From: an uncultured virus (IMG/VR IMGVR_UViG_3300038423_000132)
Lineage: Duplodnaviria > Heunggongvirae > Uroviricota > Caudoviricetes
Virus record (IMG/VR): IMGVR_UViG_3300038423_000132
DNA: 64,000 nt
Direction: 5' to 3' (one strand)
The number at the start of each line of letters is the position of its first letter. Position 1 is the stretch's first letter. The position numbers were made by a program, and so were the translations under genes. This document shows, one piece after another, positions 2,861-60,700 of the stretch. Under the pieces are notes generated by a model that was not told the origin of the DNA, did not search any database, and saw only the letters and a list, made by a program, of their open reading frames with translations.

Positions 2861-4780
2861 TCAATCATTCGCCGACGTACTCGCCAGCACTTCCACGTTG
2901 GTTGTCGAGATCCCATCCTCCATGACCTCGGTAAATTCGATGAACGCCGTCCCCGGAACTTCCGGCACGGCGCCGGCCCTGTGACTTTCCGCAGCCAGCA
3001 AGATTGCCGTGTCCAGTGTCGAGTCGAGCAGCATCCGATTCAGCTTGCGCCGGTCCTCTCCCACGATAGTTTCTGAATCGTCGAGCACCACGAAGTTCCA
3101 GCCGCTGACAATCGCAAGGGCAACAGAGAACGCATTGGCGAAGCGTAGCTTCTCGCTCCGGCTCAGCATGTGCAACTGGCAGGCGTACTGGCTGCCCGTT
3201 CTCCGCACGCTGAAACTCCAAGGCTCAATCGACAGCGAGAACTCGTAGCCCCACTTCGATAGCACGGCGTTGATCTTCTCTTCGAACCCACCGATGTGTT
3301 TGGCGATCAACTCAGCCTTGACTCCCTTGGGGCCGAAGTAGGCGACCAGGCGTTCCAGCCGATCCAACTCCGCGTCGAGAGCAGCCTTGACCTTCAGCGC
3401 CTTCGCGGCATCTTCTTTGAGGGCCTCCGCGCGCGCGGCCTGCTCGAGAAATCCTGTGCCCTTCTGAATACGGGCGTCGATGTCCGCGATCTTCTCGTCG
3501 AGCGAGTCCGGCTTCGGCAGCTCGTCAGGATTGATTGCGTGGGCGTCTTCGTTGGCGCTCGCCGCGGTACGTTCGAGATCCTTGATGCGCTTGTCGATGC
3601 GCTCCACATCCTCAGCGACCGCGTTGTGGGCGTCCAGCTTCTGCTGTGCGCCGGTGGGATCGCCCAGGGCCTTCCGCTTGTCGTAGTCGGCCTTCTGCTC
3701 ACCCTCCATCGTGTCGATGCGCTCGATCAGCGGAGCGCCAAACTTCTCAATGAATTCTTCGGTGATGGGCTGGCAGCACGTCGGGCACTGGCCCTTGTCC
3801 CCAAGTGCGCTCAGGGCTCGGTACTGCTTCTTCTCGGCCTCAAGCCGTATGGCACGGTTTGAGATTGCCGCGTCCAATTCAGCCGCTTTCTTCGCCCCGG
3901 CCGCTTCCTTCTCGTACTCTTTGACCTTGGCCTTCGGCAGCAGGGCTTCGGAGACCCTGGCGCGCTCGGCCTGCTCGGTCACGATCTTGGCTCGCGCCTC
4001 GGCCGCCCGCCGCTCGTGGTTCGCCTTGGCGTCCCTGGCGCGCTGAATCTCGCCAGCGAGCCTTTGCTGCTCGACGGCCAGCGCGGTGCGCTCCTTCTGC
4101 CTGGTGGCGAGCAACTGCCGCACGTCATCGATCGGCGGTCCCTCGTACTTCCCGCTTTCCGCCGGAGGGCGCCAGTCTTTGATTGACCTGTTCACGTCGC
4201 GGCGCATGTCGAAGGCCAGCTTGTAGCAGTGCTCGATGATGACGAATGGCGTCTCCTTCCACGGCGCGCCGATGCGCTGCTCGTGGAGATCGTTCTTGAT
4301 GTTCTCGGGCCAATCGTAGCTGTCGGGAAGAATGATCGACGCCATCAGCGTCTTCTGGTCCTTGGGGTCCATGCCCACAAAGGCGTGGTTGTCGCAGAGG
4401 CAGCCCAGCACGTCTCTGTCGATGCGCAGGTCCTCTTGGAGTGGATTTGGATCCCACGTTTTGTCTGCAGGATTGCGCAGCCCAATCGTGAGCCCGGATC
4501 GGTCGGTCAACGATGCCCTCAGTTCGAGCGGTACGCCGTCGAGGTTGATCCCCAGCTCGACCGATGCCTGCTTCTCTCCGAAGCGCAGCAGATCGGTTTG
4601 CTGGCGCTCCTTGCCGCCCTCTGTCACTTCGCAGTGGCGGGCGAAGGCCATCTCCAGGCAGTTGCGCAGCGAGCTTTTTCCGCTGTGGTTGACCCCTGAA
4701 ATCGTGGTGATCCGCTCAAAGGACAGATCGGTTTCCTTGTGGCTGCGGACGTTCTTGATTTTCGCGCTGGTGATTCGCAT
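2861..4780 (-). CDS. Rad50/SbcC-like coiled-coil ATPase
   Basis: Walker A GVNHSGKSS, coiled coil with central CPTC zinc hook, LSRSE signature-like motif, VVLDD Walker B. Confidence 0.85.
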   Translation of the reverse strand: MRITSAKIKNVRSHKETDLSFERITTISGVNHSGKSSLRNCLEMAFARHCEVTEGGKERQQTDLLRFGEKQASVELGINLDGVPLELRASLTDRSGLTIGLRNPADKTWDPNPLQEDLRIDRDVLGCLCDNHAFVGMDPKDQKTLMASIILPDSYDWPENIKNDLHEQRIGAPWKETPFVIIEHCYKLAFDMRRDVNRSIKDWRPPAESGKYEGPPIDDVRQLLATRQKERTALAVEQQRLAGEIQRARDAKANHERRAAEARAKIVTEQAERARVSEALLPKAKVKEYEKEAAGAKKAAELDAAISNRAIRLEAEKKQYRALSALGDKGQCPTCCQPITEEFIEKFGAPLIERIDTMEGEQKADYDKRKALGDPTGAQQKLDAHNAVAEDVERIDKRIKDLERTAASANEDAHAINPDELPKPDSLDEKIADIDARIQKGTGFLEQAARAEALKEDAAKALKVKAALDAELDRLERLVAYFGPKGVKAELIAKHIGGFEEKINAVLSKWGYEFSLSIEPWSFSVRRTGSQYACQLHMLSRSEKLRFANAFSVALAIVSGWNFVVLDDSETIVGEDRRKLNRMLLDSTLDTAILLAAESHRAGAVPEVPGTAFIEFTEVMEDGISTTNVEVLASTSAND

Positions 4781-4808
4781 TGCGGTGTTCCTCCGTTCGG
4801 TGGTGCGG

Positions 4809-5297
4809 TCAAAGTTCCTTGAGGCTGAATTCGTCGCCGTTCTTGTTCAGCAGGCTCGCCTTGTTCAATTTGCTGATGGCGTCGTAGACGGTCTGCATCC
4901 TGCTCGTCCCAAGATGGATGCGAATTTGGGTGTTGTTCAACTTGCCGTGAATCATCAGGATGTCGATGATCTTCGCGGCTGCTGAGTTCGGCCCCATCTT
5001 CTGCTTCCACGATTCCCATGCGGCCGAGTTCTTTGGGGCACTGGCCGATGGTCCAGGCTCGCCCTGAATTCCCATCGCATCGATTTGGCCGAAGACCATA
5101 CCGAGGGCGTGATAGAGCGGGGCCAGGATTTTCCGCAGTTCGGCAACACCGCCCTCGATGGTTTTGTTCTTGCGGCGCTCCGTGAGAAGTTCGCCTTCGA
5201 GCCTGTCGCCGCGTTCATCTGCCGAACGAAGGGCTCGCGTTAGTTCGTCGATCCTGCGTTGCTGATCCGGCAACGGGTTAAACACCGACAGGGACAT
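4809..5297 (-). CDS. Coiled-coil protein with probable C-terminal winged helix
   Basis: C-terminal IIDILMIHGKL...TVYDAISKLNKASLL..NGDEFSL. Confidence 0.55.
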   Translation of the reverse strand: MSLSVFNPLPDQQRRIDELTRALRSADERGDRLEGELLTERRKNKTIEGGVAELRKILAPLYHALGMVFGQIDAMGIQGEPGPSASAPKNSAAWESWKQKMGPNSAAAKIIDILMIHGKLNNTQIRIHLGTSRMQTVYDAISKLNKASLLNKNGDEFSLKEL

Positions 5298-5889
5298 TGG
5301 AACCTCCCGTCAACTTCGCCCGGAACGCGCCGAGAGTCTGACTTAGCACTGCTGGCGCGCCGACGCGCTCGAGGCCGCGGATGTAGAAGAACGCCAAGCG
5401 CAGAGCGCAGAGATTCAGCCGCGCCTCGGTGTATTGGTCAATCGCCATCACGTACTCGTGCCGGTGCGCGTGAGTGCCAACGATCCAATTCTTAGCTGCG
5501 TTACGCGACTCAACAAGGCGCTTGTAGAGTTCCACATCGCCGCCGTTCGGGTTGTCGGGGTGGCAGGGCTTTACTTTTGCCCGGAATGCCGAGTCGATTT
5601 CCGCAAGCGTCGGTGCTGGGTTTTCAAGTCCGAGCACCTGCTGCCAGGAGAAGTCCTCTTTCGTGAGCGAAAACCAGACTGAAACGCCGGGGTCGAGACG
5701 CTCATCCTCGTGCCGGGTTACGAGAATCGATGTCGCACCCATCTTCCCGAGTTCGGCACTAAGCATCGTCAGGTACTCCGCCCATCGCTTTTTCCATGCC
5801 GATTGGGGTTTCCGTTCCTTGATGCGCGTGCGCTCGCAGCCATCGGGCCAGCGCAGCGGCCGCTCTTCCTGCACGTCGATCTTTTTCAT
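5278..5889 (-). CDS. Phage J-domain (DnaJ-like) protein
   Basis: WQQVLGL...EIDSAFR...CHPD motif; N-terminal PLRWPDG.ERT. Confidence 0.7.
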   Translation of the reverse strand: MKKIDVQEERPLRWPDGCERTRIKERKPQSAWKKRWAEYLTMLSAELGKMGATSILVTRHEDERLDPGVSVWFSLTKEDFSWQQVLGLENPAPTLAEIDSAFRAKVKPCHPDNPNGGDVELYKRLVESRNAAKNWIVGTHAHRHEYVMAIDQYTEARLNLCALRLAFFYIRGLERVGAPAVLSQTLGAFRAKLTGGSNVPVGV

Positions 5890-6242
5890 CGTTTCCTTTC
5901 TCCCTTGCACGCCATCAGCCACGCGAAGTGGCAACGGCCGCATTCTACATGGATGTGCTCGCTAAAAATCCCGAAGCAGGGCACCTTCAGTTCTAGCGGC
6001 CCCATTTGTCCGGTCTGGACGTTAAGCCCCGGGACCTGGACCGTCGAGTTACAGTCCCCCTTGCAATACACGTAGGACTGCGCCGATTCGCCGCGGGAGG
6101 AACGCCACAGGGCCAGCAGCCAGATCCCGGCGCCGAGAGAGCCGCCACATTTCGGGCAGACCGGGAACCGCACCCACGGCTTGACCTCCGGCAGCCTGAC
6201 GCTGGTCTCTTCGGCAACGGGCGCGTGATGCTCGTGGATCAT
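5886..6242 (-). CDS. Zinc-binding hypothetical protein
   Basis: CPKC and HxxCGRC motifs; overlapping start/stop with neighbours. Confidence 0.55.
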   Translation of the reverse strand: MIHEHHAPVAEETSVRLPEVKPWVRFPVCPKCGGSLGAGIWLLALWRSSRGESAQSYVYCKGDCNSTVQVPGLNVQTGQMGPLELKVPCFGIFSEHIHVECGRCHFAWLMACKGERKR

Positions 6243-6493
6243 GGCGTCGGACCCTTTCTGGGCAGCCGGATCATCAGCGCATTCCCGGTAAAGTCGCGGT
6301 CTCCGAAAGGCGACGATGAACTCGACGGCAAATGCTGCCTGACCCATCCGCCCTGGTAGGCATAAAAGCTCCCCTCGTAGGAGATGTCCGGCATCCGTTC
6401 GCGGATCATGCGCAGGATTGCCTTTTCCCATTCACTCTCAGGTGTTAGGGCAAGCTGCGCGTCGTTCTCGTCAAAGTAAAGAGCTGTCCTCAT
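6239..6493 (-). CDS. Hypothetical protein
   Basis: Start/stop coupled ORF in operon. Confidence 0.55.
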   Translation of the reverse strand: MRTALYFDENDAQLALTPESEWEKAILRMIRERMPDISYEGSFYAYQGGWVRQHLPSSSSSPFGDRDFTGNALMIRLPRKGPTP

Positions 6494-7134
6494 GCCCTAC
6501 CTCTGCTGACTTCCTGCTCGTGGAACGCTGCCAGTTGCTTGGGTCCGCTCTTTGCGGCCGGCGGCATCACTTTCACGCGCTGGCCTGGCGGCGGCTGCGT
6601 CAGCGGTAACGTGTCTCCGTCCTCCTCGCCTTCCTCTTCTTCTTCGGCACCGTCGAAGTCGAGTTCGGTCTGAGAGTAGACGGCTTCCATCCAGAAACTC
6701 TTATGGAGATGAGTCCACGCCCAATCCCGAAGATCGATGCTCGCCGGAATGTAGGCCACGAGATGTAATTCCAGTTCGCGTCTCTCGCCTTCTCCCGAGG
6801 CGACCACGGCCAGCTTCTGCATCCGCACGCCCGTGCTGGTAGCCGAACGGCGCTTGCTTTCGTCGGTGGCGAAGATATCGAGCGTAAAACCTTCGAGCTC
6901 GACGTTCAGGCTACTGCGTTCGATTTTCGAGTCATCCTTCGCCATGACGGTAAAGGCTTCGCTGATCGCGCTGTCCATGCCCTTGAGGTTCTGGTTTAGG
7001 AGCGGCATGTGGATATCGAGCTTGATCCGATCCTCTCCAGCCCGCGTTTTCAGATGAGCCCAGGTGTTGAGGGTCGCCCCCCGGCGGTGCCCATTGAAAA
7101 AGCTCTTCAGCTTCGTTGCTTTTTGTGCTGCCAT
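6490..7134 (-). CDS. Hypothetical protein with acidic C-terminal tract
   Basis: 214-aa ORF with GAGG RBS. Confidence 0.65.
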   Translation of the reverse strand: MAAQKATKLKSFFNGHRRGATLNTWAHLKTRAGEDRIKLDIHMPLLNQNLKGMDSAISEAFTVMAKDDSKIERSSLNVELEGFTLDIFATDESKRRSATSTGVRMQKLAVVASGEGERRELELHLVAYIPASIDLRDWAWTHLHKSFWMEAVYSQTELDFDGAEEEEEGEEDGDTLPLTQPPPGQRVKVMPPAAKSGPKQLAAFHEQEVSRGRA

Positions 7135-7149
7135 GATTCGCCTCGTTTC

Positions 7150-7236
7150 TGTGATCCCCGCCGCCTGGTCGCGGAGTCGAACCGGCCTAAGCGGCGGGGG
7201 TTCATCGGCGGGAACGGAGGTACACCGCCGAACTGG
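7150..7236 (-). ncRNA. Candidate anti-Shine-Dalgarno small RNA (two hairpins)
   Basis: Stem 7205-7211/7225-7231 with minus-strand loop UGUACCUCCGUUC; second GC stem (about 7156-7199) containing GGUUCGACUCC. Confidence 0.55.
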
Positions 7237-7428
7237 TTACTTCTTCGCCTTCGCCCAACGCTTGCGCTGCGCCTCCGCGATGCGCTCACGGCCGGCGGCG
7301 CTCAGCTTGTGCTTCGCCGGTTTAGTTGGCTTGGCCGCAGCCTTCGGCTTCGCGCCGCTCAGCACCTTAAATGCCGCCTGGAGTCGACCGATTTCCTTGT
7401 CAATCGCTTTCAGAATGTCGTCTGTCAT
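7237..7428 (-). CDS. Small basic putative nucleic-acid-binding protein
   Basis: K/A-rich; ends LSAAGRERIAEAQRKRWAKAKK. Confidence 0.75.
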   Translation of the reverse strand: MTDDILKAIDKEIGRLQAAFKVLSGAKPKAAAKPTKPAKHKLSAAGRERIAEAQRKRWAKAKK

Positions 7429-7464
7429 GGTTCCTCGATGCAGCCGCTCCGCTGCCGGTGATGG

Positions 7465-8298
7465 TTAGAAGTAGCTGTCGGCCGGCTTGGCGCTCTGCGT
7501 CCCGGTGCCGGTGGACCGCTGCTCGGTTTGCTCGGGCTCGTGCCGCTCCTCGGCCTGGTCCAACTCGTGCTCCACGGCCGCGGCCTCCTGCGCGGGTTCT
7601 TCCTGCTGCGCCGCTTCCGCTTGTGCTGCAGGCTTTGCCGCGCCCCGCGCGCGCGCGCCCACCAGCTTCTTCACGGCGTCCGTCTTGCTGGTCGCTCCGT
7701 CGATGATGGCTTTGCCCGCGAACTCCGGGTTGCCCTCGATCGTTTTGGCCTCGTCCTCGTCCACAATCCCAGAGATCGAAAACGCGATGCGAGAGCACTG
7801 CACAAATGCTCGGTTGCGCGTCATGCGGATCGGCATGGTGTTCCACGGGATCGTGTCGCGCTTGCATTCGTGGGTGTACTCAGTGACGACGACGGGCAGC
7901 GCGCAGTCCTTGCGGTGGATCTTGCAGGTGACCGCCTGAACTTTGCCTGTCTCCTCGTCAAAGTGCTCCTCGAACTCAATGCCGTTGAGCTGTTTGCGGC
8001 TGTTGACGATTTTGCTCCATCCGTCCACGCTCACCACGATCAGGAGTTTGCCTTTCGAGCGGAACGCATAGATTTCTTTCAGGAATGGGTTGAGGTCGTG
8101 AGCATTGCAGACGATCAACGCCGCGGCCACTTCCTCATTCGAAAGCGGTGGCTCGTCCTTGCCTCCCTTGAAAACAGTTGCGGCGACCAGGCTCATCACC
8201 TTGGTGGGGTCGACATCAAACCGCTCGGCAAAGGTTGCTACTACCCCTTTCCGCGTGGTTGTTGCGAGTGCTGTGGTCTGTTCCTTCGGTTCTGCCAT
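7465..8298 (-). CDS. bet: RecT/Bet-family single-strand annealing recombinase
   Basis: LNPFLKEIY, VSVDGW, W..MP.RM.R.RA..Q..R.AF motifs. Confidence 0.9.
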   Translation of the reverse strand: MAEPKEQTTALATTTRKGVVATFAERFDVDPTKVMSLVAATVFKGGKDEPPLSNEEVAAALIVCNAHDLNPFLKEIYAFRSKGKLLIVVSVDGWSKIVNSRKQLNGIEFEEHFDEETGKVQAVTCKIHRKDCALPVVVTEYTHECKRDTIPWNTMPIRMTRNRAFVQCSRIAFSISGIVDEDEAKTIEGNPEFAGKAIIDGATSKTDAVKKLVGARARGAAKPAAQAEAAQQEEPAQEAAAVEHELDQAEERHEPEQTEQRSTGTGTQSAKPADSYF

Positions 8299-8314
8299 AA
8301 CTCCTCCGTTCGGG

Positions 8315-8551
8315 TTAGTAACGTTTCGGTGTCGTGAGCACGGGCGGGCATTCAACAACGAACCGCCCCATTCCGTCGACACGGATCAACCAAAGCGCAC
8401 CGAGATTGTCGAGCGCCAGTAGGTTGTCTTGAAAGTAGAGAACCTGCACCCAGATCGGGTCAGGATAAGTATAGACGACCTTGGGCACGTGAACGCGCCC
8501 GCGTAGGGTGCGCCACGCCATGACCAGACGTTGCCTGAAAGAAACCGTCAT
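8315..8551 (-). CDS. Hypothetical protein
   Basis: ORF preceded by CCGAACGGAGG. Confidence 0.65.
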   Translation of the reverse strand: MTVSFRQRLVMAWRTLRGRVHVPKVVYTYPDPIWVQVLYFQDNLLALDNLGALWLIRVDGMGRFVVECPPVLTTPKRY

Positions 8552-8569
8552 GGATGTCCTCCGTTCGGA

Positions 8570-8881
8570 TTACTGGTCCTGATTCATGCAGGAGATGCTG
8601 CAAAAGCGCAACGTCTCCCAGTCCAGGCTTTTGAGCCACGGACATTCCAAGGTGATAGCTTCGTTGACCGCTGCCAGCACAGCTTGAACCTTGACATCGT
8701 TAGGAGCGATCAGCTCAAGAATCATCGTCCTGTCATCCATGTTTCGGTGAGTGCCCGAACAAATCCACCCCGCCAGATCACTGTTCTGCTCCCGCAGGAT
8801 AGCCACCGCCCGCCCACAGACGTAATAGGCGCCTGTGAGTATCTTTTGCGTAGACTTGACAGTGACGATGTGAGCTATCAT
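8570..8881 (-). CDS. Hypothetical protein
   Basis: ORF packed in operon. Confidence 0.55.
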   Translation of the reverse strand: MIAHIVTVKSTQKILTGAYYVCGRAVAILREQNSDLAGWICSGTHRNMDDRTMILELIAPNDVKVQAVLAAVNEAITLECPWLKSLDWETLRFCSISCMNQDQ

Positions 8882-8897
8882 TTCTTCCGCCTTCAGC

Positions 8898-9107
8898 TTA
8901 CTGAATCATTGTTGTGGGCATCGTGAGCCCGCTATCTGGCAACGGTGCGCCGACCGCCATGTCTTCGATGTCCTTGTACGGGATGCCTTCGTGGTTACAC
9001 CGTGGACAATCGCGGGGCGGGCCTTCCCAGATCGCGCCGCACCCCCTTCGAACACACACCATGGCCGTCGATTGGTTGAGGATGGTCACTTCTTCCACCA
9101 CGCGCAT
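8898..9107 (-). CDS. Small zinc-ribbon protein
   Basis: CxxxxC...CPRC. Confidence 0.5.
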   Translation of the reverse strand: MRVVEEVTILNQSTAMVCVRRGCGAIWEGPPRDCPRCNHEGIPYKDIEDMAVGAPLPDSGLTMPTTMIQ

Positions 9108-9541
9108 AGAGCATCAAAAAGCGAAGAGATTGGATGCTTGTCTTCGCCCTCAAGGAGACGGAAATTACGGGCAGCTTCTTTTTCGAGCGCGTCAATAGGC
9201 AATCCAACCTTCGCCGCCATCGCGCCACGCCAATAAGCCGGGTCATTTTGGATGCCTCTCGTTGGATCGACATAGAGTTCGGGAGCAGTGCGCAACGGAC
9301 GCCAGGAGAGAAAGGGCGCATTCCCTTTCGCGTCTGACTCCACGCTGGAATGCGTATTCCCGTATCTAAACCAACCGTCGCCGTTCCAGGCGAAGACTCC
9401 GTACCAGGGCGCGACTCCAAAAGTGCAGCGGATTTCAATGGGCGATCCATCGCGCGGAGCGTGCTCCATTGGCATCCAGTCATGCAAGGAAGTCATTTGC
9501 GTGCGCTGGAAATATGCCCCTATCTTGAGTGCTCTTTTCAT
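9086..9541 (-). CDS. Hypothetical protein
   Basis: ATGA overlap with upstream stop; W.PME.APRDG motif. Confidence 0.55.
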   Translation of the reverse strand: MKRALKIGAYFQRTQMTSLHDWMPMEHAPRDGSPIEIRCTFGVAPWYGVFAWNGDGWFRYGNTHSSVESDAKGNAPFLSWRPLRTAPELYVDPTRGIQNDPAYWRGAMAAKVGLPIDALEKEAARNFRLLEGEDKHPISSLFDALCAWWKK

Positions 9542-10530
9542 TTCCTTGACCACCATGCCCGCAAGAAGGCAGCGCGCTGTTCTTCCTCGGTGTGTGCCTT
9601 CACGATCTCCGGGTGAAGCGGGCCTACTTCCTTGCCCACGGCCTCCCAATCGGTAACCAGCTTCTTCTCCGGCCTCACCCAGCCCACGCTGCCCATGGGC
9701 GTAATGGCCTTCTGTGCGTCTCCGATGAGCGCCCGCAGGTGATTGTTCGCCTCGCGCTCGCGGGCCTCCCAGGTGGCTTTCTGTTCGCTGGCGGCCCGCA
9801 TCTCCGCGGTGAAGTCCAGAATCTCCTGGCTGGGCTTGGTGATGACCTCGCCGGTCGAGAGCGAGAACTTGCGGGCGAAATACGCTCCGCAACTCACCGT
9901 CTGGTCGATGGGCGGTTCAGTCTTCTTGACAACATAGTCGTGCCAGAATGCGCGGGCGACTTCCGTCATGTTGCGCTCAAACACCGGGTCCCGTTCGATC
10001 CGGTATTCCTGAAGCGTATTGCCAGAGAAGAGGACGCCAAAATTCCAGCCAAATGCTTCGCAGATTTTCATGTACCATGAGTCGGCCACGAAATAGTGGG
10101 CCGGCACTTCCTCGCTTCCCTCGGCGCCCCACTCTCCCGACTTGCGCGCGGAGCATTTCCCCTCGTATCCGCGATTCATAGAAGGAATCCAGCCGTCCGG
10201 GGCGGCGATCATCCAGGGCTCTTCGCCGATGACCAAGTTGATTGCGTTCCATGGCCGCGTGTTCTTGAAGTAAGCGCTCAGTTTTTCAGGGGCGATCACA
10301 TCAACGCCGAGGCGCTGCGCATAGCGATCGCGTACAATAGGTTCGAGAGCGAGTCCCCACCACAGCATCTCGGAGTCGAGGGCGGGGATTTTTTCTGGGG
10401 CGACTTTTGCTTCCCAGACTTCGAATGGGGTTTTCCACGGGCTAAAACCAAGAATTGCGGCTACGTCGCTCCCGCCGAGTCCATTGGCGCGCGACGCCGC
10501 GTAGGATTCTTTCTCTTCGTATACGCTCAC
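9538..10530 (-). CDS. YqaJ-like viral exonuclease
   Basis: GLGGSDVAAILG.SPWKT, G..LEP, APDG, E.K; near RecT. Confidence 0.92.
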   Translation of the reverse strand: MSVYEEKESYAASRANGLGGSDVAAILGFSPWKTPFEVWEAKVAPEKIPALDSEMLWWGLALEPIVRDRYAQRLGVDVIAPEKLSAYFKNTRPWNAINLVIGEEPWMIAAPDGWIPSMNRGYEGKCSARKSGEWGAEGSEEVPAHYFVADSWYMKICEAFGWNFGVLFSGNTLQEYRIERDPVFERNMTEVARAFWHDYVVKKTEPPIDQTVSCGAYFARKFSLSTGEVITKPSQEILDFTAEMRAASEQKATWEAREREANNHLRALIGDAQKAITPMGSVGWVRPEKKLVTDWEAVGKEVGPLHPEIVKAHTEEEQRAAFLRAWWSRK

Positions 10531-10569
10531 GATTGCCCTCCGTTCGGTGTACTTACCGGGCAAGGATGC

Positions 10570-14094: not shown

Positions 14095-14272
14095 GTCCGG
14101 TGCCGAGTTCAACACTCGGCTGGACGCTGAGGAGCGGGAGGCGCGCGCTGTGGCCTGCCCGCTGGTGGACAGGTGCGGGGCCCAGGTAGGCGAGCCGTGC
14201 TGCACGGAAGCGGGAGAGCCTAGAATTCGCCACTGTCGGCGTTTGTGGCTGGCGAGGAAGGCGGGGAAGTGA
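14039..14272 (+). CDS. Small zinc-finger protein
   Basis: CP....CGA..GEPC...H..R. Confidence 0.5.
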   Translation: MIQELRFETVPLAINRKVESGAEFNTRLDAEEREARAVACPLVDRCGAQVGEPCCTEAGEPRIRHCRRLWLARKAGK

Positions 14273-16602
14273 CGATACGCAGGATTTACGGAGAAGAGGT
14301 AGACCTGCCCTCTGGGGCAGTTATGGGAGCAGAATTTATCGTGCCAGATCAGAGGAATTGGGGCGAGTATTCGGAGTTTCTTGCGCGAAAGGCTATCGTT
14401 CCGGTAATTTCCGGCCTGAGCGATATTCCTCCACTTCATCCCCGGATGTTTCCCTTCCAGCGCGATGTGGCTCAATGGGCGCTCCGCCTCGGGCGCTCTG
14501 CAGTGTTCCTCGGAACAGGCATGGGAAAAACCCTCATTGAATTAGAATGGTCCAAGCATATCGCCAAGTACACAGATGGCCCAATTCTGATTCTCGCGCC
14601 GCTCGCTGTCGCGCAGCAAACCGTGGAAAAGGAATCTCCGAAGTTTGGATTCGAGTCTCGGATTGTGCGCCATCAGAGGGAGGTTGGCACAGGGATCAAC
14701 GTCACGAATTACGACCGGATAAATGACTTTGACCCATCGAAGTTCGGTGCCGTGGTCTGTGACGAATCGAGCATTCTCAAGTCAATGGACGGTAAGACGC
14801 GCTCTGCGTTGATAGAGATGTTCGCGCGGACTCCGTACAAACTCTGCGCGACAGCAACGCCGGCGCCAAATGACTACATGGAGTTAGGAAACCATGCCGA
14901 GTTTCTGGGAGTAATGACGGCGATGGAAATGCTCGCTATGTTCTTTGTCCATGACGGAGGCGATACGCAGAAGTGGAGACTCAAAGGCCATGCTCGCCGC
15001 GAATTCTGGAAGTGGGTTTGTTCCTGGGCGGTGTCAATGCGGAAACCATCCGATGTGGGCTACGAAGATGATGGCTTCGTGCTGCCGCCAAAGTACGAGC
15101 ACTTCCACGAGGTTCTAGTCGAAACGCCGACCGATGGATTCCTCTTTGCGCTTCCAGCCGAAACCTTGCAGGAACGCATCGGAGCTCGTCGGGCGTCCAT
15201 TGACGAGCGCATCGCAATGGCGATCAGTGTGATTCACAAAGAGCCAGATGAGCAATGGCTTATCTGGTGCAACCTAAATGCGGAGCAAGACGATTTAGCG
15301 CGGCACTTGGGCTCTGATTGCGTTTCGATCTTCGGCTCACTCAATCCCGACCGCAAGGTCGAGTTGCTGAATCTTTGGCTATCCGGCGAGAAGAAATATC
15401 TAGTGAGCAAGGCGTCGATGTTCGGGTACGGGCTGAACCTCCAGAATAGCGCACGGCAATTATTTGTCGGAGTAAATGATTCATGGGAGCAGTTCTACCA
15501 GGCCGTGCGCCGCTCGTGGCGTTTCGGGCAGATGCGCGACGTACATGTGCATATCATCGCCGCCACCACGGAAGGTAACGTGGTTGAGAACCTGAGACGG
15601 AAAGATGCGGAGGCACAAAAGATGGCAGAGGAAATGGCAGAGAACACGCAAGACTTGACCCGCATGAATCTAATTGGCACGTCGCGCACTTCATCGCCCT
15701 ACGTTCGGGACCGAGCCGAGGGTGAGGGCTATCGGATTGACTTGGCCGACTGTGTTGAAATGGCGCGGGAAGTGGCGAACGACTCAATCCACTACTCGAT
15801 ATTCTCGCCGCCGTTCGAAACGCTGTACACTTACTCAAACAGCGACCGCGACATGGGCAACAGCCGCACGTCCGATGAGTTTTGGCAGCACTATCGTTTT
15901 CTAATTAAAGAGCAATTCAGAATCACGATGCCTGGACGCCTTGTGTCGATTCACTGTATGAATCTGCCCACATCGAAGCAGTTCCATGGTTACATCGGCC
16001 TGCGCGACTTTCGCGGGGAAATCATCAAGGCATACGAAGAAGCGGGATTTATCTATCACTCCGAGGTCTGCATTTGGAAAGACCCAGTTACTTCGATGCA
16101 GCGCACGAAAGCTCTCGGTTTGCTCCACAAGCAGATCAAAAAGGATTCCTGCATGAGTCGGCAGGGGATTCCCGATTACTTAGTGACCATGCGGAAACCG
16201 GGAGACAACCCAGAGCGGGTGACAAACACAAATGAGAGTTTCCCTGTAAAGTTGTGGCAGAACTTTGCGAGTCCGGTATGGATGGATATAAACGCTTCAG
16301 ACACCTTGCAAAAGGAATCAGCCCGCGAGCATGAGGATGAGCGGCACATCTGCCCACTACAACTTGAAGTCATCCGGCGCGGGGTGAAGCTGTGGAGCAA
16401 CGTGGGCGATACTGTCTACGATCCTTTCGCTGGCATAGGGTCAACTGGCGTTGTGGCTTTGGAGATGGAGAGGAATTTTCTCGGCAGCGAATTGAAGCGA
16501 TCGTATTGGCTCCAAGCGTGCGCGAATCTAGAATATGCCAGCAAGCGCAGCGACAGTCTTTTTTCTAAAGCTGACGTTTCCGCTTCCGCCTCTTCCTCGT
16601 GA
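14269..16602 (+). CDS. SF2 helicase-N4/N6 DNA methyltransferase fusion
   Basis: GTGMGKT, DESS, TATP, QAVRRSWRFGQ; then SPPF and DPFAGIGST. Confidence 0.9.
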   Translation: MTIRRIYGEEVDLPSGAVMGAEFIVPDQRNWGEYSEFLARKAIVPVISGLSDIPPLHPRMFPFQRDVAQWALRLGRSAVFLGTGMGKTLIELEWSKHIAKYTDGPILILAPLAVAQQTVEKESPKFGFESRIVRHQREVGTGINVTNYDRINDFDPSKFGAVVCDESSILKSMDGKTRSALIEMFARTPYKLCATATPAPNDYMELGNHAEFLGVMTAMEMLAMFFVHDGGDTQKWRLKGHARREFWKWVCSWAVSMRKPSDVGYEDDGFVLPPKYEHFHEVLVETPTDGFLFALPAETLQERIGARRASIDERIAMAISVIHKEPDEQWLIWCNLNAEQDDLARHLGSDCVSIFGSLNPDRKVELLNLWLSGEKKYLVSKASMFGYGLNLQNSARQLFVGVNDSWEQFYQAVRRSWRFGQMRDVHVHIIAATTEGNVVENLRRKDAEAQKMAEEMAENTQDLTRMNLIGTSRTSSPYVRDRAEGEGYRIDLADCVEMAREVANDSIHYSIFSPPFETLYTYSNSDRDMGNSRTSDEFWQHYRFLIKEQFRITMPGRLVSIHCMNLPTSKQFHGYIGLRDFRGEIIKAYEEAGFIYHSEVCIWKDPVTSMQRTKALGLLHKQIKKDSCMSRQGIPDYLVTMRKPGDNPERVTNTNESFPVKLWQNFASPVWMDINASDTLQKESAREHEDERHICPLQLEVIRRGVKLWSNVGDTVYDPFAGIGSTGVVALEMERNFLGSELKRSYWLQACANLEYASKRSDSLFSKADVSASASSS

Positions 16603-17674: not shown

Positions 17675-17693
17675 TGTGGATCCTCCGTTCGGT

Positions 17694-17906
17694 TTAGGGT
17701 CGGTAGTTCACCATCTGCTCGTCGAATCGTTGCTCTTGCAGCTCGCGCCATGCCTTCTTCCCGCACCCATCGCCGGCGCACAGCACCTGCTTGGTAGCTG
17801 GGAAGTACAGCGCGTCCTCGCCCTTCTTGATCCCGAACCCGCACCCGGCACACTTGGCGCCGTAACGCGTGACGAGCCAGAACGGGGCGCTACTGCGGCG
17901 GTTCAC
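17694..17906 (-). CDS. Small zinc-binding protein
   Basis: RY..KCAGCG..IKKG; GGAGG RBS plus GTG. Confidence 0.6.
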   Translation of the reverse strand: MNRRSSAPFWLVTRYGAKCAGCGFGIKKGEDALYFPATKQVLCAGDGCGKKAWRELQEQRFDEQMVNYRP

Positions 17907-19014: not shown

Positions 19015-19224
19015 TCATCGGCGGGCCTCCGGATTGAGCAGTTTCGGATCGCCGATGGGAAGGTCTACGATCTCCCACCAGGATTCCCAGCGCACGGAGC
19101 ACGAATCGAGAGTGTGGCGTGTCTGCATTCGGTAAAGTGTGCCGTCCTCGGTGAGCGCATAGACACTATCGTACGAGTCTTCCGATGCTGTTGCGACTGC
19201 TATCTGTTTGAACTTGAGGCTCAT
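19015..19224 (-). CDS. Hypothetical protein
   Basis: FKQIAV...VYALTEDG motif. Confidence 0.6.
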   Translation of the reverse strand: MSLKFKQIAVATASEDSYDSVYALTEDGTLYRMQTRHTLDSCSVRWESWWEIVDLPIGDPKLLNPEARR

Positions 19225-19284
19225 GCCGTTTCCTCCGCGATAAAGCCGTTAGGCGCCGCCGATTGCGCGACGGCACGGGGTAGA

Positions 19285-20028
19285 TTAGCTTGATTTCTTG
19301 ATCTCTTCCTTGATTGGATTCCCCGCGTTATCGACCTTGTATGGCACGTTTGGTTTGATCCCGTTTTCGCCCACCGCGAAGATCGCTCTTTTGTATTTCT
19401 CTCCGTTCCAATAAAGGATCGAAAGTACGCCTCCGTCGCCTGAGGTGCTGGTGCCTCTGTAGCCTGAGGTGCTGGTGCCTCTGTCGCCTGAGGTGCTGGT
19501 GCCTCTGTAGCCCGAGGTGCTGGTGCCTCCGTCGCCTGAGGTGCTGGTGCCTCTGTAGCCTGAGGTGCTGGTGCCTCCGTCGCCTGAGGTGCTGGTGCCT
19601 CCGTCGCCTGAGGTGCTGGTGCCTCTGTCGCCTGAGGTGCTGGTGCCTCTGTAGCCTGAGGTGCTGGTGCCTCCGACGACAAGAGTTCCAGCGGGGGCAT
19701 AACGGGAGATCAGGGCAGTAGCTTCTTCTCGCGTGCCGAAGTATTCGACGATTGCTTTTGGGACCTTGATCTTGCGGTTAATTTCGACGACCTGCGAAAG
19801 TTTGACGCGTGCCACAACCCATGCAGCGTCGCCCCAATTCAGTACTAAGCCATCGCCTGCTCCCCAGAGCAGCCCGTGCAGACCATTGCCGCATCTTGGT
19901 TCATCGTTCCAATCAGGACATTCGACCGGACCAGACTTTGGCCAAACAAAACCATCGTAGCTGGTGCCATCTGGATTGCAGGTGCGGAGCATCAGCGCTT
20001 CGCCCTTCGCTAGTTTGATTCGTTTCAC
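19285..20028 (-). CDS. Phage protein with GTSTSG[DY][GR] octapeptide repeats
   Basis: N-terminal CGNGLHG domain, ten repeats, C-terminal VGENGIKPNVPY. Confidence 0.8.
   Translation of the reverse strand: MKRIKLAKGEALMLRTCNPDGTSYDGFVWPKSGPVECPDWNDEPRCGNGLHGLLWGAGDGLVLNWGDAAWVVARVKLSQVVEINRKIKVPKAIVEYFGTREEATALISRYAPAGTLVVGGTSTSGYRGTSTSGDRGTSTSGDGGTSTSGDGGTSTSGYRGTSTSGDGGTSTSGYRGTSTSGDRGTSTSGYRGTSTSGDGGVLSILYWNGEKYKRAIFAVGENGIKPNVPYKVDNAGNPIKEEIKKSS
19429..19674. repeat. 24-bp tandem repeat, about 10 copies
   Basis: gcctgaggtgctggtgcctc(t/c)gt(a/c) units. Confidence 0.95.
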
Positions 20029-24789: not shown

Positions 24790-24862
24790 GTGGGCCAAGC
24801 GCGCCCTCATCGCGGCAGCATTCCTCGCCTTCACGGTCTTCTGCGTGTGGGCCAGCCTTTAA
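24779..24862 (+). CDS. 27-aa membrane peptide
   Basis: Manual translation MATKWAKRALIAAAFLAFTVFCVWASL. Confidence 0.35.
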   Translation: MATKWAKRALIAAAFLAFTVFCVWASL

Positions 24863-24891
24863 TCCATTCAATTCAAAGGAGAATCGTCACC

Positions 24892-25836
24892 ATGCGTACA
24901 TTCGCTCGGAGCTTTATCGTCGTCGCGCTCATCGCACTGGTCGCCATTTGCGCGGCCCCCGTAGCGGTGGCGCAGGGCAACCAAACCTTCATGCAGCGCT
25001 GGTACTTCGCCTCCGACTTCGGTCAGTGGGCGGTTCGCGGCCAGCAGGCCAACACCTACCAGTGGTCCCCGGGCACCGTCTGCCTCGTGAGCCCCACGGG
25101 CAGCGCCGGAGCGGCCTTCTTCCCGTTCGCCACCAATGCCCCGGTCGAGATCGTTGACGTCACCGGCCCGACAACCAACAACGAGGTTGTCACCCCGTCC
25201 GCGGTCACAAACAGCAACGCCTACTGCACGATCGCGGTCTCGCCTGGCAGCAATCACTACTCGTTCGACGTGGTTTCAGGCACAGGCGGTCTACAGGAGG
25301 TGCTGAACAACATCAGCCGGACGGCGACTGCGCCAGCGATCGTGTGGCTCGACCGCAACTGGTACGCGCTGGCCAACTCCGTGCCGAGCACCACGCCGGC
25401 GGCGATCATCGCGGCGGCCAAGGGCGGTGTCTCGGCCATCCTGGTCGACGACACCACGGCCGGATTCACCTACTACGTGTGGAATGGGTCGGCCTACGCC
25501 TCCGGCACCTGGCTCAACACCAAGCCCACCACGGCCTACGGCGCTGCGGTCGGAAGCCCGACCGGCACGTCCGACACCGGCACGGCGCTGACGGGGATCG
25601 TGAAGGTCACCACCGGCACCGGGACCACAGGCATCGTGTTCACGGAAACCTGGTCGACCAGCAACCAGTTCGCATACGCCCCGACCTGCACGGTGGTCTT
25701 GCTCGGTGCCACAGCTCCGCCAACGCTGACAGTGACGCCCACCTACGCCGGCGGGACACACGCCGTGCTGACGGTCACGGTCGCGTCGGCCATGGCCTCG
25801 ACGACCCCGTACAGCTTCCAGTGGTCCTGCTACTGA
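24892..25836 (+). CDS. Exported beta-rich protein, N-domain paralogous to 26914..30252
   Basis: Signal peptide ending AVA-Q; SGTGGLQE and YVWNGSAY motifs. Confidence 0.75.
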   Translation: MRTFARSFIVVALIALVAICAAPVAVAQGNQTFMQRWYFASDFGQWAVRGQQANTYQWSPGTVCLVSPTGSAGAAFFPFATNAPVEIVDVTGPTTNNEVVTPSAVTNSNAYCTIAVSPGSNHYSFDVVSGTGGLQEVLNNISRTATAPAIVWLDRNWYALANSVPSTTPAAIIAAAKGGVSAILVDDTTAGFTYYVWNGSAYASGTWLNTKPTTAYGAAVGSPTGTSDTGTALTGIVKVTTGTGTTGIVFTETWSTSNQFAYAPTCTVVLLGATAPPTLTVTPTYAGGTHAVLTVTVASAMASTTPYSFQWSCY

Positions 25837-25950
25837 GTTCCCCGCGCAGATTCATTCGCGGGCCGCGGCTCCAATTCGGAGCCGATCAATGGGCTGGGTT
25901 CTCTCAGGAGGCCCAGCCCTCACATCTAAGGGACGAGAGGAGCCCCTGAC

Positions 25951-34510: not shown

Positions 34511-34601
34511 CCGGTTCCGGCGGAAAGGCAGGTCGCGGACAGTCAGAGCAGCAGAGGGGACGGCTCCAAAGGCCGTCCCTTTTGCTGTCCGCGAAACTCC
34601 T

Positions 34602-55853: not shown

Positions 55854-56426
55854 TTGTCGAGAGCCCAGGAATCTCAAGTCGAAGGCACGGCCACAAATCA
55901 GAACGCGGGCTATTACAACGATGCCCAAAACTCCTATGCCGCTGCCCAGGGTGACGTCGAGGACTACAAGGACCAGCTCGCTAAGTACAAGGCGAGCAAC
56001 CCCTACGTCCAGGGCGGCCAGTTCCAGACCACAACAAATCAGATGCTGGCAGACACGGCGGACGCCGGCGCGCGCGCGGCCGGAGAGCGGCTGCAGAGTC
56101 AAGCCCTACGCACCGGGCAGAACAGCGCGGGCAGTGTAGCAGCGACCGAGCAGATGGAGCAGCAGGGCACGCGGACGCTATCGGCCGATGAGGCCAGAGC
56201 CAACCAGGAGCGGATCGTGGCTGGCGCGGGATACGGCCGGAACGTGCTTCAGGCCACACAGGCACCAGCAGAGATGGAATCCCGGCTCGCCGGGCAGCAG
56301 GCCGAAGCCGCTGGAGGCGTGCTGAACACTGCACAGAAGGCCGGCGAAACGCCGTCTTGGTGGGATCAGTTTGGAGATGAAGCCGCGAAGGGGTTCGGAC
56401 AAATGGTATTCGGACCGAAGGGATAG
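55854..56426 (+). CDS. Internal virion/DNA ejection protein
   Basis: A/Q/G-rich helical protein; position. Confidence 0.65.
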   Translation: MSRAQESQVEGTATNQNAGYYNDAQNSYAAAQGDVEDYKDQLAKYKASNPYVQGGQFQTTTNQMLADTADAGARAAGERLQSQALRTGQNSAGSVAATEQMEQQGTRTLSADEARANQERIVAGAGYGRNVLQATQAPAEMESRLAGQQAEAAGGVLNTAQKAGETPSWWDQFGDEAAKGFGQMVFGPKG

Positions 56427-56432
56427 GGGAGA

Positions 56433-57764
56433 GTGGCGACGATGGCAGGCGATCCAAGTCAATTTTTATCGGAAGACGAACAGTATGGCGCCATGCTGGG
56501 CCGGCTTCTCAACCCTCCCCCGGAGGCTGAGCAGCAGGTCGCACAGAATACGGCGCCAGCGGCTCCGGTCCAGAGACCTGCGCTCGCTCCCGCACAACCT
56601 GTGCCATCACCATCGCCAGCGGTGCCGCCAAAGCCAGCGACGCCGAACGCTGTCTCTCCGAACACGCCATCGTTCTACCAGCGCGGGCAACAGGGCGCAC
56701 TGAACATGGCCGACCAGGACGCCCGAACGGTTACGGCGTTGGAGAACCAGCCGAACGCCGCGACTGAGAATAAGCTGCTCGAAGCGCAACGCGTCGCCCT
56801 GGCACAGCCTCTGAATCCTCAAGACCAAGGCTATCGCCCCGGAATCGGAACCAGAATCGCACGCGGACTGGCCGCGGCCCGCAAGGGTGGTATCGCCGGG
56901 GCCATTGACCCAACCGCAGTAGGAGCAACCGCTTACGGCGCACCCAACCGCCAATTCGACATCGACACCGCGCGCCGGCAAGCGCAGGCGACCGTCCTTC
57001 AGTCCGAAGAGGACCGCAACATCGCCAACGAGAAGGCAGAAAGCGAGCGGATCAAGGATGTCGGGACGGCGGCCGGCAGGGTTGGAACTGCCTACGGCGG
57101 TGTGGCCAGGGACGCCACGGCGCAGCAGAGCGCTGAGCAAAAGAGCCAATACGAAGGCCAGATCGCCGACCTTCGCCAGCAGCTCGCTAACCAAGGCGGC
57201 GTGCCCAAGACCTACGAGCAGGCCGTAATCGCCTCGCAGATCGATCCAGACCCGCAGAAGCGGCAGGGATACGCCGCCGCAGCGAAGCAAATCGCCTCCC
57301 AGGAAGTCAAGAGGTTCCAGTACGCCAACCGGGCGGTTGGAGGCGGCGAAGACGATCCCCGGCGCCAGCCGCTCATCGACGCTGCAACCGCACAGGTTGA
57401 CAAGCTCAACACTTACGAGTGGGATCCTGAAGCCCAGAACGGCGCGGGCGGATTTTACGACCCGCACAGCGACGGGACAAAAACATACTCCCCGGCCGAG
57501 TTCACGGCGATGAAGAACGCGATCGCTACAAAGCTGGACGCGCAGCTTACCCAAAAGAAGATGCGCCCGCTCGGCGTCCGGTTTACCGTCGCGGCGACGA
57601 CTCCCGGCGGCGCACCCGCCGCGGCACAGCCAGGCGCGCCAGCCGCTCCCGCGCAGACTGCGCCATCCGCCACGACGGTTACACAGGGCCAGGTCTACAA
57701 GGGATACAAGTACCTCGGCGGCGATAGGGCGAACCCGAAAAGCTGGCAGCAGGTCCAGCAGTAA
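56433..57764 (+). CDS. Internal virion/DNA ejection protein
   Basis: A/Q-rich; C-terminal GYKYLGGD..NPKSW motif. Confidence 0.65.
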   Translation: MATMAGDPSQFLSEDEQYGAMLGRLLNPPPEAEQQVAQNTAPAAPVQRPALAPAQPVPSPSPAVPPKPATPNAVSPNTPSFYQRGQQGALNMADQDARTVTALENQPNAATENKLLEAQRVALAQPLNPQDQGYRPGIGTRIARGLAAARKGGIAGAIDPTAVGATAYGAPNRQFDIDTARRQAQATVLQSEEDRNIANEKAESERIKDVGTAAGRVGTAYGGVARDATAQQSAEQKSQYEGQIADLRQQLANQGGVPKTYEQAVIASQIDPDPQKRQGYAAAAKQIASQEVKRFQYANRAVGGGEDDPRRQPLIDAATAQVDKLNTYEWDPEAQNGAGGFYDPHSDGTKTYSPAEFTAMKNAIATKLDAQLTQKKMRPLGVRFTVAATTPGGAPAAAQPGAPAAPAQTAPSATTVTQGQVYKGYKYLGGDRANPKSWQQVQQ

Positions 57765-60700
57765 TGGGCAGCGCAGCGGTCCAACTCGCCCCGTGGGAAG
57801 AGGCGGCGCAGCAGACCCCTCCGTGGGAAGAGGCTGCACAGGCGCAGACCAAAGCCGCGCCATCTCCCTACCCTCCCGGCACTCCCCCTGCAGCCCAACC
57901 ATTTAGCGACCAGGACGCCGCGCGGTTCACGCGGCCAGCCGGAACATCTGTTCCTCCAACCTTTTACAACAGAACTCCAAATACACCTAGCACGCAAAGT
58001 GCTGCACAGCCTCCATCCCCTCCCGGATTCTGGTCTTCGGTCGTTAAACCTGCCGCATCTTCGTTCGCGCGCGCTGTTGGTTTGCCTGGCTCCGTCGAAG
58101 AAGCTGCGCAACAGCAGGAGCAGCGACAGGCTGAGTTGCGCGCCCATCCCGTAAAAGGCACCATCGAGGCTCTCGCCGGTCCCCCTGGACAATTTGCGGA
58201 GGGGCTGTACGCGGGCGCAAAGCGCATCACCGGCGAGCTGAAAGAGGGAGGCGAGGCGCTCGCAGAGGGCCAGCCTGGCTTCGCGGCGGTCCATGCGGTC
58301 CAGGCGATCCCATTCGTCGGTGCGGGGATCCAGACCGGCGTTCAGCAACTCGGGCCGAACGAGCTGATAAACCCAGCGGAAGTTGGCACGGTCCTTGGCA
58401 CAGCCGCCCAGGTTGCCCCCATGCTTTTGGGCGGAGGCGGTGAAGCCCGTCCAAAACTCAACCTCGGCGTTTACACCCCTCACGAGCCTCCGATGCTCCC
58501 GCTTCCCCCGGCAGAGCCTGAGTACGTGGGCGAGCCGGAAGCCCCTCCGCAGCCAGCAGGCATCCCTGACGCCGAGGTGACGCCGTGGGAGGAGGCTAAG
58601 CAGGCGCAACTGCCGGCCACGACATCGGCCGGACTCCGCCCGCCGCCGCCCGTCAACCGCGCCGAGGCCGTCGAGCGCACGACGCCGCCTCCGCAGTTCG
58701 CGCCGCGGCCAGCGCCGACCGCCGCTCGGGGAATGATCGTCGACCAGCAGGGGAATGTGCTCCCGGTGCGCCCCGGTCTGCCGCCGCCGGTTGAGACGGC
58801 CGGCCGGAAGACGCCGATCATCGCCAAGCCTGTCCCGCCGACCGTCCAGCCCGGGCCCGTCGCTCCAAGGTTGGCCACGCCCGCTGTGATGGCACCAGCG
58901 CCCGCGCAGGCTGTCCCTGTACAGGCCGCGCCCTCCCCGGCAGGCCAACCCACCATCCTGCAGCCGAACGCCCCACAGGGCCAGCCAGAGGCCCAGCGGC
59001 CTGTGGTTCAGGCAAGCACCGAACCGGCCGAGATCCGGCAATCGGCCGCGGAGCAGAAGCCGGTCCTCAAAGACATGGCCGAGACCGCCGTCGAGGGGAT
59101 CCCCGGCGCCAAGGTCGAGGGGATGCGGGTCAAGGAGCCAGAGGCCGTCGAGAACAAGGAGGACCGCGGCAAGCCACCGGAGACCATCGTTGACCACCTC
59201 GGGGCTCGAGTCTCGGCTCCCACGCCAGAGGCGGTTGAGCAGATCAGGCAGAACATCGAGAGCCAGCTTCCGGTTCGAAGTGCCGACAAGATCGATTCGA
59301 ACGGCGTGAATGCCGACCAATACGCCGTGCAGACCGGGATGCCGGGAGAGCCGAACCAGCAGTCTGAACTCCAGGTTGTGACCGCGCCGGTCGCCGAGGC
59401 CATGAAGGCCACGGACGACCTGTACGACCAGCAGAAGAAGGCGCTGGCGGCCGGGGACCAAGCCAAGGCCGATGAACTGGGCGCGCAGATCGCCGCCAAG
59501 ATGCAGGACGCCCAACAGCCGGAGCTCCAGGGCCGCGCCGTGCTGGCCGAGTCGCCGGAGCAGACGCAGCTTGGCAACCCACCGCCCAAGGCGGGCGATA
59601 CCGTCGCCTACCAGACCAACGGCGGGAAGACGCGGAACGCGAAGGTCGTCCGGGTCGACGGCCAGGACGCCTACCTGCGCGACGGGTACGCGACGGTCAA
59701 GAAGCCGATCGCAAGCCTGAAACCGGCAGGCGCGCCCGCCGCCGCGCCAGTGCCGCAACCCGCCGCACCCGCGCCAGCAAAGGCCGCGCCCGTTGCGCGC
59801 GCCGCCGCCGCGCCGCCGCCGCCCGTCCAGCAGGGCCAGCCAGCGCCCGGCACGCCCCGCCCGGTTGGAGAGCCGATCCGGGCCCGCATCGATCAGATCA
59901 AGGACCTTGAGGCCAAGGGCCAGAAAGTCGTCATCTTCTCTGCCGAGGCCGACAACCCGGCGGTCAAAGAGGCTTTGACCAAGGCAGGTCTGGGCAACCT
60001 GCCGGTGACGAATATCAAGGGGCCGGACTTCGGCGCGCTGCTCGACAACGATGTAAACGTGGAGCGGAACGGGACCGGGCCGATGACGATTCCGCCCGTG
60101 GTGCCCGGAAAGTCTCTCTACGTCGATTTCGACGGAACGCTGTTCATGGAGCCGGGAGAGAGAACAGGAGCGCAAGCCAATGCCATTGAACCTCGGAACG
60201 GCGGCCAGCCATCAGGCCCTTCAGAAGCAAGTGGTGGTGGGGAGAAAATCAATGCCAATGAAATCGCAGGCAATGCGCCGCGCGCTGTGGGCCAAGGACC
60301 CCAAGGTGGCGCAGGAGTTCGAGAACGAGACACCGAAGGGCGCGGTACTGCCGGAGCGATTGCACCCGCCGTCGAAGAAAAGCCACTGGGTCAGCCGGGC
60401 GGTGGGGAGAAACCGGAAAAAGTAACGACCACCAAATACAAGTACGGCAACACCCAGGCCGACATCCCGCGCGGCTCGGAAGCCGGGAAAGCGCTCGCGG
60501 CTGCACGCGCCAAGATCGCCCCGGATGACCTGATGCCTACCAGCAACACATCGGATGGCGGAGGTCTCGAAGAAGATTCCCATGTGACCGTCCGGTACGG
60601 GATTGACAGCGACGACACGAGCGGCATTCGGACGCATCTTGAGAAGCAGACACCGTTCGAGGCATCTCTGGGCAAGGTCACATCGTTTCCGCCGAGCGAA

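Follow-up and report, generated by a model that had tools for sequence, protein, structure and literature searches.

The spacer described here lies in a stretch of 64,000 nucleotides from an uncultured virus (Caudoviricetes; IMG/VR record IMGVR_UViG_3300038423_000132), which we call the window and which has a G+C content of ~ 60%. Its early genes are read from the minus strand, from ~ 20.5 kb down to 0.2 kb, and include those for a YqaJ-type exonuclease, RecT, an SbcC/Rad50-like ATPase (SbcC-like below), an HNH endonuclease and a DnaB-like helicase. The late genes, few of which have a PHROG match, are on the plus strand. The phage is novel: blastn of positions 5000–9500 against a GenBank phage collection gave zero matches, and 6400–8400 is without a match in the nearest record (G001). 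Public sequencing runs that contain the window DNA are labelled as peat and wetland metagenomes, and no RNA runs were among the listed holders.

Between the RecT and SbcC-like genes, the genes for a 63-aa protein and a 214-aa protein flank a spacer that holds two GC-rich hairpins (Table 1). A search of both flanking proteins found no DNA-binding family. The 63-aa gene is probably expressed well. The Atlas clusters nearest to its product are commonest in Acidobacteriota, a weak hint that the phage infects a member of this phylum.

Table 1. Features of the spacer, the neighboring early genes and the shared ribosome binding site (RBS) cassettes, in window coordinates.
Feature	Position	Strand	Remark
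Intercistronic spacer, 102 nt, holding both hairpins	7135–7236	minus	From TAA 7239–7237 to ATG 7134
Hairpin 1, 7-bp stem UCGGCGG/CCGCCGA, 13-nt loop UGUACCUCCGUUC	7205–7231	minus	−13.5 kcal/mol
Hairpin 2, perfect 9-bp outer stem leading into an irregular ~ 17-bp helix, 7-nt loop UUCGACU	7156–7199	minus	
Anti-RBS 9-mer CCUCCGUUC in the hairpin 1 loop	7212–7220	minus	GAACGGAGG on the plus strand
T-loop-like motif GGUUCGACUCC	7173–7183	minus	In hairpin 2
Upstream gene, 63-aa Lys/Ala-rich protein	7237–7428	minus	No family; GC3 0.75
Downstream gene, 214-aa protein	6490–7134	minus	No family; own RBS GAAACGAGG
YqaJ-type exonuclease gene	9538–10530	minus	GTG start at 10530
RecT gene	7465–8298	minus	Early gene
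SbcC/Rad50-like ATPase gene	2861–4780	minus	Early gene
HNH endonuclease and DnaB-like helicase genes		minus	Among the early genes
Leader of the SbcC/Rad50-like gene (start 4780)	4782–4800	minus	CCGAACGGAGG cassette at 4790–4800
CCGAACGGAGG cassette, RecT gene (start 8298)	8303–8313	minus	
CCGAACGGAGG cassette, 78-aa gene (start 8551)	8558–8568	minus	
CCGAACGGAGG cassette, YqaJ-type exonuclease gene (GTG 10530)	10537–10547	minus	
CCGAACGGAGG cassette, 140-aa gene (start 17674)	17682–17692	minus	

The hairpin that the original prediction had placed behind the stop codon of the 63-aa gene, with a 7-bp stem and a 13-nt loop, is present on the minus strand as described. Its stability was equaled by 1 of 200 dinucleotide shuffles (z −3.52), and that of hairpin 2 (−31.0 kcal/mol) by none of 200 (z −3.86). 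The whole 106-nt stretch was less striking (z −1.81, equaled by 13 of 200 shuffles), and the plus strand of the spacer folds too (−50.8 kcal/mol, z −2.19). When folded in a 431-nt context, the hairpin 1 stem had pair probabilities of 0.74–0.89 and the center of its loop, CUCC, was unpaired at ~ 0.9, with the flanking bases of the 9-mer CCUCCGUUC mostly paired. Hairpin 2 forms its ~ 17 bp with two bulges.

The bases 3′ of the two hairpins (UGAACCC and AUCACAG) contain no U-tract. A scan of 6000–9000 found no U-tract terminator at the element and 0 sigma-70-like sites, a promoter type that may not be the one used by the host. Across the window, ~ 8.3 kb of crudely defined non-coding DNA contains 17 distinct hairpins with perfect stems, of which only the one at 34557–34579 runs directly into TTTT. 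At 25866–25884 and 25891–25919, behind the ORF at 24790–25836, two more GC-rich hairpins stand in tandem, again lacking U-tracts, and the loop of the latter hairpin has AGGAGG on the coding strand. A 31-codon minus-strand ORF starting at AUG 7204 was set aside, as it has no Shine–Dalgarno (SD) sequence and overlaps the next gene.

The loop of hairpin 1 carries the complement of a sequence that is repeated in the leaders of the early genes. GAACGGAGG occurs seven times in the window (0.75 expected; 0 of 100 shuffles reach seven). Five copies lie 4–7 nt ahead of minus-strand starts at 4780, 8298, 8551, 10530 and 17674, where all of them read CCGAACGGAGG, identical over 11 nt and situated 2–7 nt past the stop codon of the preceding gene. 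The sixth copy, at 46154, has no start behind it, and the seventh is the plus strand of the hairpin 1 loop. The prediction that the loop 9-mer is the exact complement of the RBS sequence of five same-strand genes was thus borne out, and we reproduced the more extended pairing proposed for the Rad50-like gene: of the 17 nt made up by the loop and four stem bases, 16 are complementary to the SbcC-like leader. A further leader named in the prediction, that of the gene at 17694–17906, also matches, the GTG at 17906 being preceded by GGAGGAACACC.

Two features of the cassette bear on whether the loop shaped it. The G of the loop pairs with the idiosyncratic C of GAACGGAGG, and in the relatives identified by their RecT (L003–L013) the YqaJ, RecT and SbcC-like genes share a different extended RBS of GAAAGG type, for example AGAAAGGCAAGG. 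The conservation of CCGAACGGAGG also extends 2 nt past any possible pairing with the loop, to positions at which one CC would stand against another, so that the 11-nt identity exceeds the pairable stretch and is not explained by the loop. Both GAACGGAGG and the GAAAGG-type sites resemble the complement of the usual bacterial 16S rRNA 3′ tail, GAACGGAGG being one base off that complement. Given this resemblance, the shared cassette can be an extended Shine–Dalgarno sequence inherited with the tightly packed gene junctions.

A 14-mer from the loop was found at 73 non-self places in viral contigs. At 23 of these, or 20 of 58 when only distinct contexts are counted, a start codon that opens at least 40 codons lies 4–12 nt after GGAGG on the opposite strand, as compared with 190 of 1,460 random positions. 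None of the 73 is flanked by stems of at least 7 bp, the longest being 6 and 5 bp, and the T-loop motif does not occur close to any of them. Judged by these occurrences, the plus strand of the hairpin 1 loop is ordinary phage RBS sequence. A plus-strand gene behind this RBS-like sequence in the window was rejected, there being no ATG, GTG or TTG within 12 nt.

As to how unusual the match is, the window contains 169 inverted pairs of at least 15 nt, some of them 22–25 nt long at 84–91%, and the BLAST E-value of the 17-nt match (0.15 for a 201-nt query) equals that of an unrelated 13-nt match. What is unusual is the placement, a hairpin loop set against same-strand RBSs, and not the match length. 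The 17-nt loop segment was therefore judged by its pairing energy with the 69 translation-initiation regions of a crude gene list. Its best duplex, with the SbcC-like leader, has −26.3 kcal/mol, a value reached by 11 of 500 loop shuffles and 19 of 1,000 genomic 17-mers. The five motif leaders range from −17.8 to −26.3 kcal/mol, and the five best duplexes sum to −111.6 kcal/mol, a total reached by 2 of 500 shuffles and 8 of 1,000 genomic 17-mers. The energetics of the loop against the leaders are unusual, not extreme. Among the 17 intergenic hairpins, this loop is the strongest of those no longer than 17 nt; loops of 30–34 nt score higher through their length. A rate of 0.8% per loop over 17 hairpins gives a probability of ~ 0.13 that one such loop occurs in a window, and as this window is one of very many surveyed, a chance origin is disfavored only.

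RNAcofold cannot keep the stem during loop-to-strand pairing, and stem opening was therefore charged to the interaction. With this charge, the SbcC-like leader ranked first of the 69 at −15.4 kcal/mol. The remaining leaders formed a continuum headed by three without the motif, those of the starts at 7428 (−11.0 kcal/mol), 22370 (−10.4 kcal/mol) and 17906 (−10.3 kcal/mol). The motif leaders of 17674 (−9.0 kcal/mol, rank 8) and 8298 (−7.0 kcal/mol, rank 12) came lower, and those of 8551 and 10530 were outside the best 12 of 69. A single preferred target is thus better supported than five, since only the SbcC-like leader stands out once stem opening is charged.

The other copies of the locus that were found are all 100% identical (L001 over 3,027 nt and L050 over 6,642 nt), and contigs from four further DNA runs showed 0 differing letters; among the matches listed in those runs, one record (7136–7343) spans the element. 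The exact 27-mer of hairpin 1 was present in viral contigs only as a 100% identical fragment. For the 214-aa protein, too, all copies in viral and metagenome contigs are identical, and genome contigs have none. For the 63-aa protein there are seven non-self partial relatives, whose downstream DNA is unrelated, and short contigs of other organisms match its gene at a C-terminal motif (7253–7301) only. The best RecT match in genome contigs is at 48% identity.

Twelve loci with RecT at 62–70% identity (L003–L014) have the order YqaJ, RecT, a variable segment and an SbcC-like gene. With tblastn, the five genes in the gap between RecT and the SbcC-like gene, both spacer-flanking genes included, had no match in these loci, and BLAST of the 201-nt element against them gave nothing significant. 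A covariance model built from the single 89-nt element was searched against 63 sources (484,215 bases) and recovered itself only (121.9 bits), with every non-self match at an E-value of 3.6 or worse. Two of the relatives (L007 and L013) have a shared extended RBS of their own, and a crude 8-mer search, noisy and weak as evidence, found no reverse complement of it on the coding strand of the loci searched. A similar-looking hairpin in L012 (4799–4837) was rejected since it is part of the coding sequence for a C-terminal extension of RecT. This L012 RecT (3968–4882, 304 aa) has a Cys-rich C-terminal extension that contains the GC-rich, hairpin-forming stretch.

We consider that the spacer most probably holds ordinary intercistronic mRNA hairpins, with a loop that happens to be an inverted RBS-like sequence, and give this reading a probability of about 0.45. 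Two GC-rich stem-loops would form in the long early mRNA, behind a small gene and where two gene cassettes meet that are missing from the relatives. There they may block 3′ exonucleases, serve as sites for a double-strand-specific RNase, or do both, and in either role they would make levels differ between the gene that precedes them and those that follow. This is favored by the finding that each hairpin is more stable than its shuffles and fills the gap between same-strand genes, by the lack of a promoter-like site and of a U-tract terminator at the element, by the recurrence of GC-rich hairpins without U-tracts across the spacers of this phage, and by the variability of the RecT-to-SbcC interval in relatives. 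We think that the hairpins are neither a canonical terminator nor a separate small RNA gene; that they stabilize or direct processing of the mRNA is what we infer. The hairpin 1 loop is most simply explained as what remains of an RBS cassette that became inverted, or else as an accidental outcome of stereotyped leaders. An RBS-like sequence in reverse fits the use of the plus-strand 14-mer as an RBS in other viral contigs, although such a relic would require a history that is not seen here, as no plus-strand start codon follows the RBS-like sequence. Three observations argue against an ordinary intercistronic element: the exact complement of the most repeated RBS 9-mer lies in an open loop on the same transcript, a placement unlikely to arise by chance; few genomic 17-mers or shuffles pair equally well, with this loop the strongest of its size class; and the loop G matches the unusual C of GAACGGAGG where relatives use GAAAGG-type sites.

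A rival reading is an antisense element. Hairpin 1 might present an anti-Shine–Dalgarno loop whose main partner would be the SbcC-like leader, 2.4 kb downstream, with weaker pairing to the remaining GAACGGAGG leaders. Acting in cis on the polycistronic mRNA that contains it, or as an excised RNA, it would lower the translation of recombination and nuclease genes by a logic like that of c4. We regard this as rather unlikely. The 9 of 9 nt shared with five leaders, the 16 of 17 nt with the SbcC-like leader, duplex energies that put the loop in the top 0.4–2% of the nulls, the open loop center and the first rank of the SbcC-like leader even with stem opening all point this way, and c4 RNA itself acts through loops on the RBS region of its target, according to the portion of PMC12197685 that deals with it. 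The complementarity is the sole evidence for a small RNA. Against it stand the lack of an Rfam match, promoter or terminator at the element, the identity of all other copies and the absence of the element from relatives, the ~ 0.13 chance of one such loop among 17 hairpins, the cofold scores of 7428, 22370 and 17906, leaders that lack the motif yet do as well as three of the five that carry it, the failure of the conserved cassette CC to pair with the flank of the loop, and the relatives L007 and L013, which lack a reverse complement of their own RBS on the coding strand. A more specific version is unlikelier again: hairpin 1 would be an operon-embedded anti-RBS RNA, unrelated in sequence to c4 and CI and addressed by the private cassette CCGAACGGAGG, that throttles the SbcC-like nuclease first and RecT and YqaJ more weakly, with hairpin 2 and its T-loop-like cap as a processing or stability handle.

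Two further explanations dispense with a function of the folded RNA altogether. Both palindromes share a hexamer, in the order CGGCGG, CCGCCG, CCGCCG, CGGCGG, and these four sites might bind a phage or host protein at the DNA level, as an operator or in replication, with the RNA fold incidental. The equally good folding of the plus strand is what DNA palindromes should show, but no promoter-like site is close by, the hexamer spacings are irregular by eye and no DNA-binding family was found in the flanking proteins, and we hold this explanation to be improbable. It is similarly improbable that the spacer is now functionless and hairpin 2 the remnant T-arm and 3′ acceptor strand of a decayed phage tRNA. 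The tRNA T-arm-like sequence that had been pointed out in hairpin 2, GGTTCGACTCC, is indeed there, once in the window; the likeness is not significant, the motif arising in 13 of 100 window shuffles. A 17-mer around this T-loop recurs exactly at the T-arm/acceptor junction in tRNA-Cys genes of two viral contigs (L143 and L144) and is also present in tRNA-like sequences of L145 and L147, with six non-self matches in total, yet ~ 7 chance matches are expected for a 17-mer by a rough estimate that assumes the collection size. The T-stem of the tRNA-Cys genes is CGCGG/CCGCG, and its 5′ strand is unlike the GCCGG at hairpin 2, which gives only three of five pairs; no 5′ acceptor strand lies beside hairpin 2. 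ARAGORN found 0 tRNA genes in the window, and Rfam no tRNA match to 6900–7500 at E-values up to 10. The tRNA-like sequences in the viral contigs L145 and L147 have complementary acceptor-like ends and a perfect T-arm, and neither was called as a tRNA by ARAGORN.

The view that the element is of no described family agrees with the Rfam search, which gave 0 matches to the window at gathering score, the C4 antisense RNA family (RF01695) included. At E-values up to 10, the only match to 6900–7500 was Bp2_287, which scored 14.9 bits where the gathering score is 70. On this sequence comparison, the element is not a C4-family member.

Several known systems nevertheless offer parallels. CI RNA of phage P4 is counted with c4 as the same kind of system, and c4 RNA is reportedly cut from a precursor by RNase P, in work by Hartmann from 1995. 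The c4 RNA of P1 and P7 blocks translation of ant by binding around its RBS, with the complementary sequences likely placed in loops, as set out in the c4 portion of PMC12197685, and RNase P substrates include C4 RNA and polycistronic operon mRNAs in the part of PMC11143913 concerned with them. Like c4, the element is embedded in an operon, and its loop complements the RBS region of a gene transcribed together with it. Unlike c4, it is not matched by the Rfam C4 model, its best target is 2.4 kb away instead of adjacent and its context is not an immunity region.

In the early region of T7, RNase III sites in the spacers act as intercistronic processing and stabilizing hairpins; sites of this type comprise about two turns of irregular duplex RNA. 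The hairpins described here resemble these in being irregular, GC-rich and without a U-tract, in spacers of early genes on one long transcript, whereas hairpin 1 with its 7 bp is too short for a typical site. Bacteria have anti-Shine–Dalgarno small RNAs with C/U-rich loops, such as cuckoo/CcsR and AbcR, each encoded separately between a promoter and a terminator of its own and often present in tandem copies. The hairpin 1 loop likewise shows a CCUCC-type sequence that could base-pair with numerous SD sites, but it is a single copy inside an operon and has no Rfam match. In the RNA phage MS2, an RBS is masked over a long distance within one RNA. Here, too, a far-upstream sequence is complementary to a downstream RBS on the same RNA; the difference is that the present phage has a DNA genome and a polycistronic mRNA, and that the putative masking sequence would itself lie in a hairpin loop.

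If the loop does mask RBSs, the recombination and nuclease genes would be timed by a tiny RNA element of their own operon through a private RBS variant. It would join the very few phage antisense RNAs that are proven repressors of translation, as a case unrelated to them in sequence, and would support the idea that self-addressed elements are common in uncultured phages. As a structural hairpin only, it would be ordinary. Because stereotyped SD and anti-SD sequences let matches between loops and leaders arise without function, conservation or expression data are needed before the element is called a small RNA.

Some other features of the window were noted in passing. A 785-aa ORF on the plus strand (14245–16602) matches both a helicase family (phrog_16) and a DNA methyltransferase family (phrog_67) and sits within the early region, which is otherwise on the minus strand. 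A 1,971-aa ORF (57764–63679) has a short RNA-ligase-like match to phrog_755 at residues 936–1032 (E = 4.8e-10). A head-to-tail array of 24-nt repeats occupies 19381–19740, with 11 registers of a 120-nt reference at 65–100% identity, inside the minus-strand ORFs 19221–19700 and 19285–20028, the latter of which matches phrog_18079. The repeat unit of this array is ~ 91% complementary over 22 nt to positions 56249–56270.
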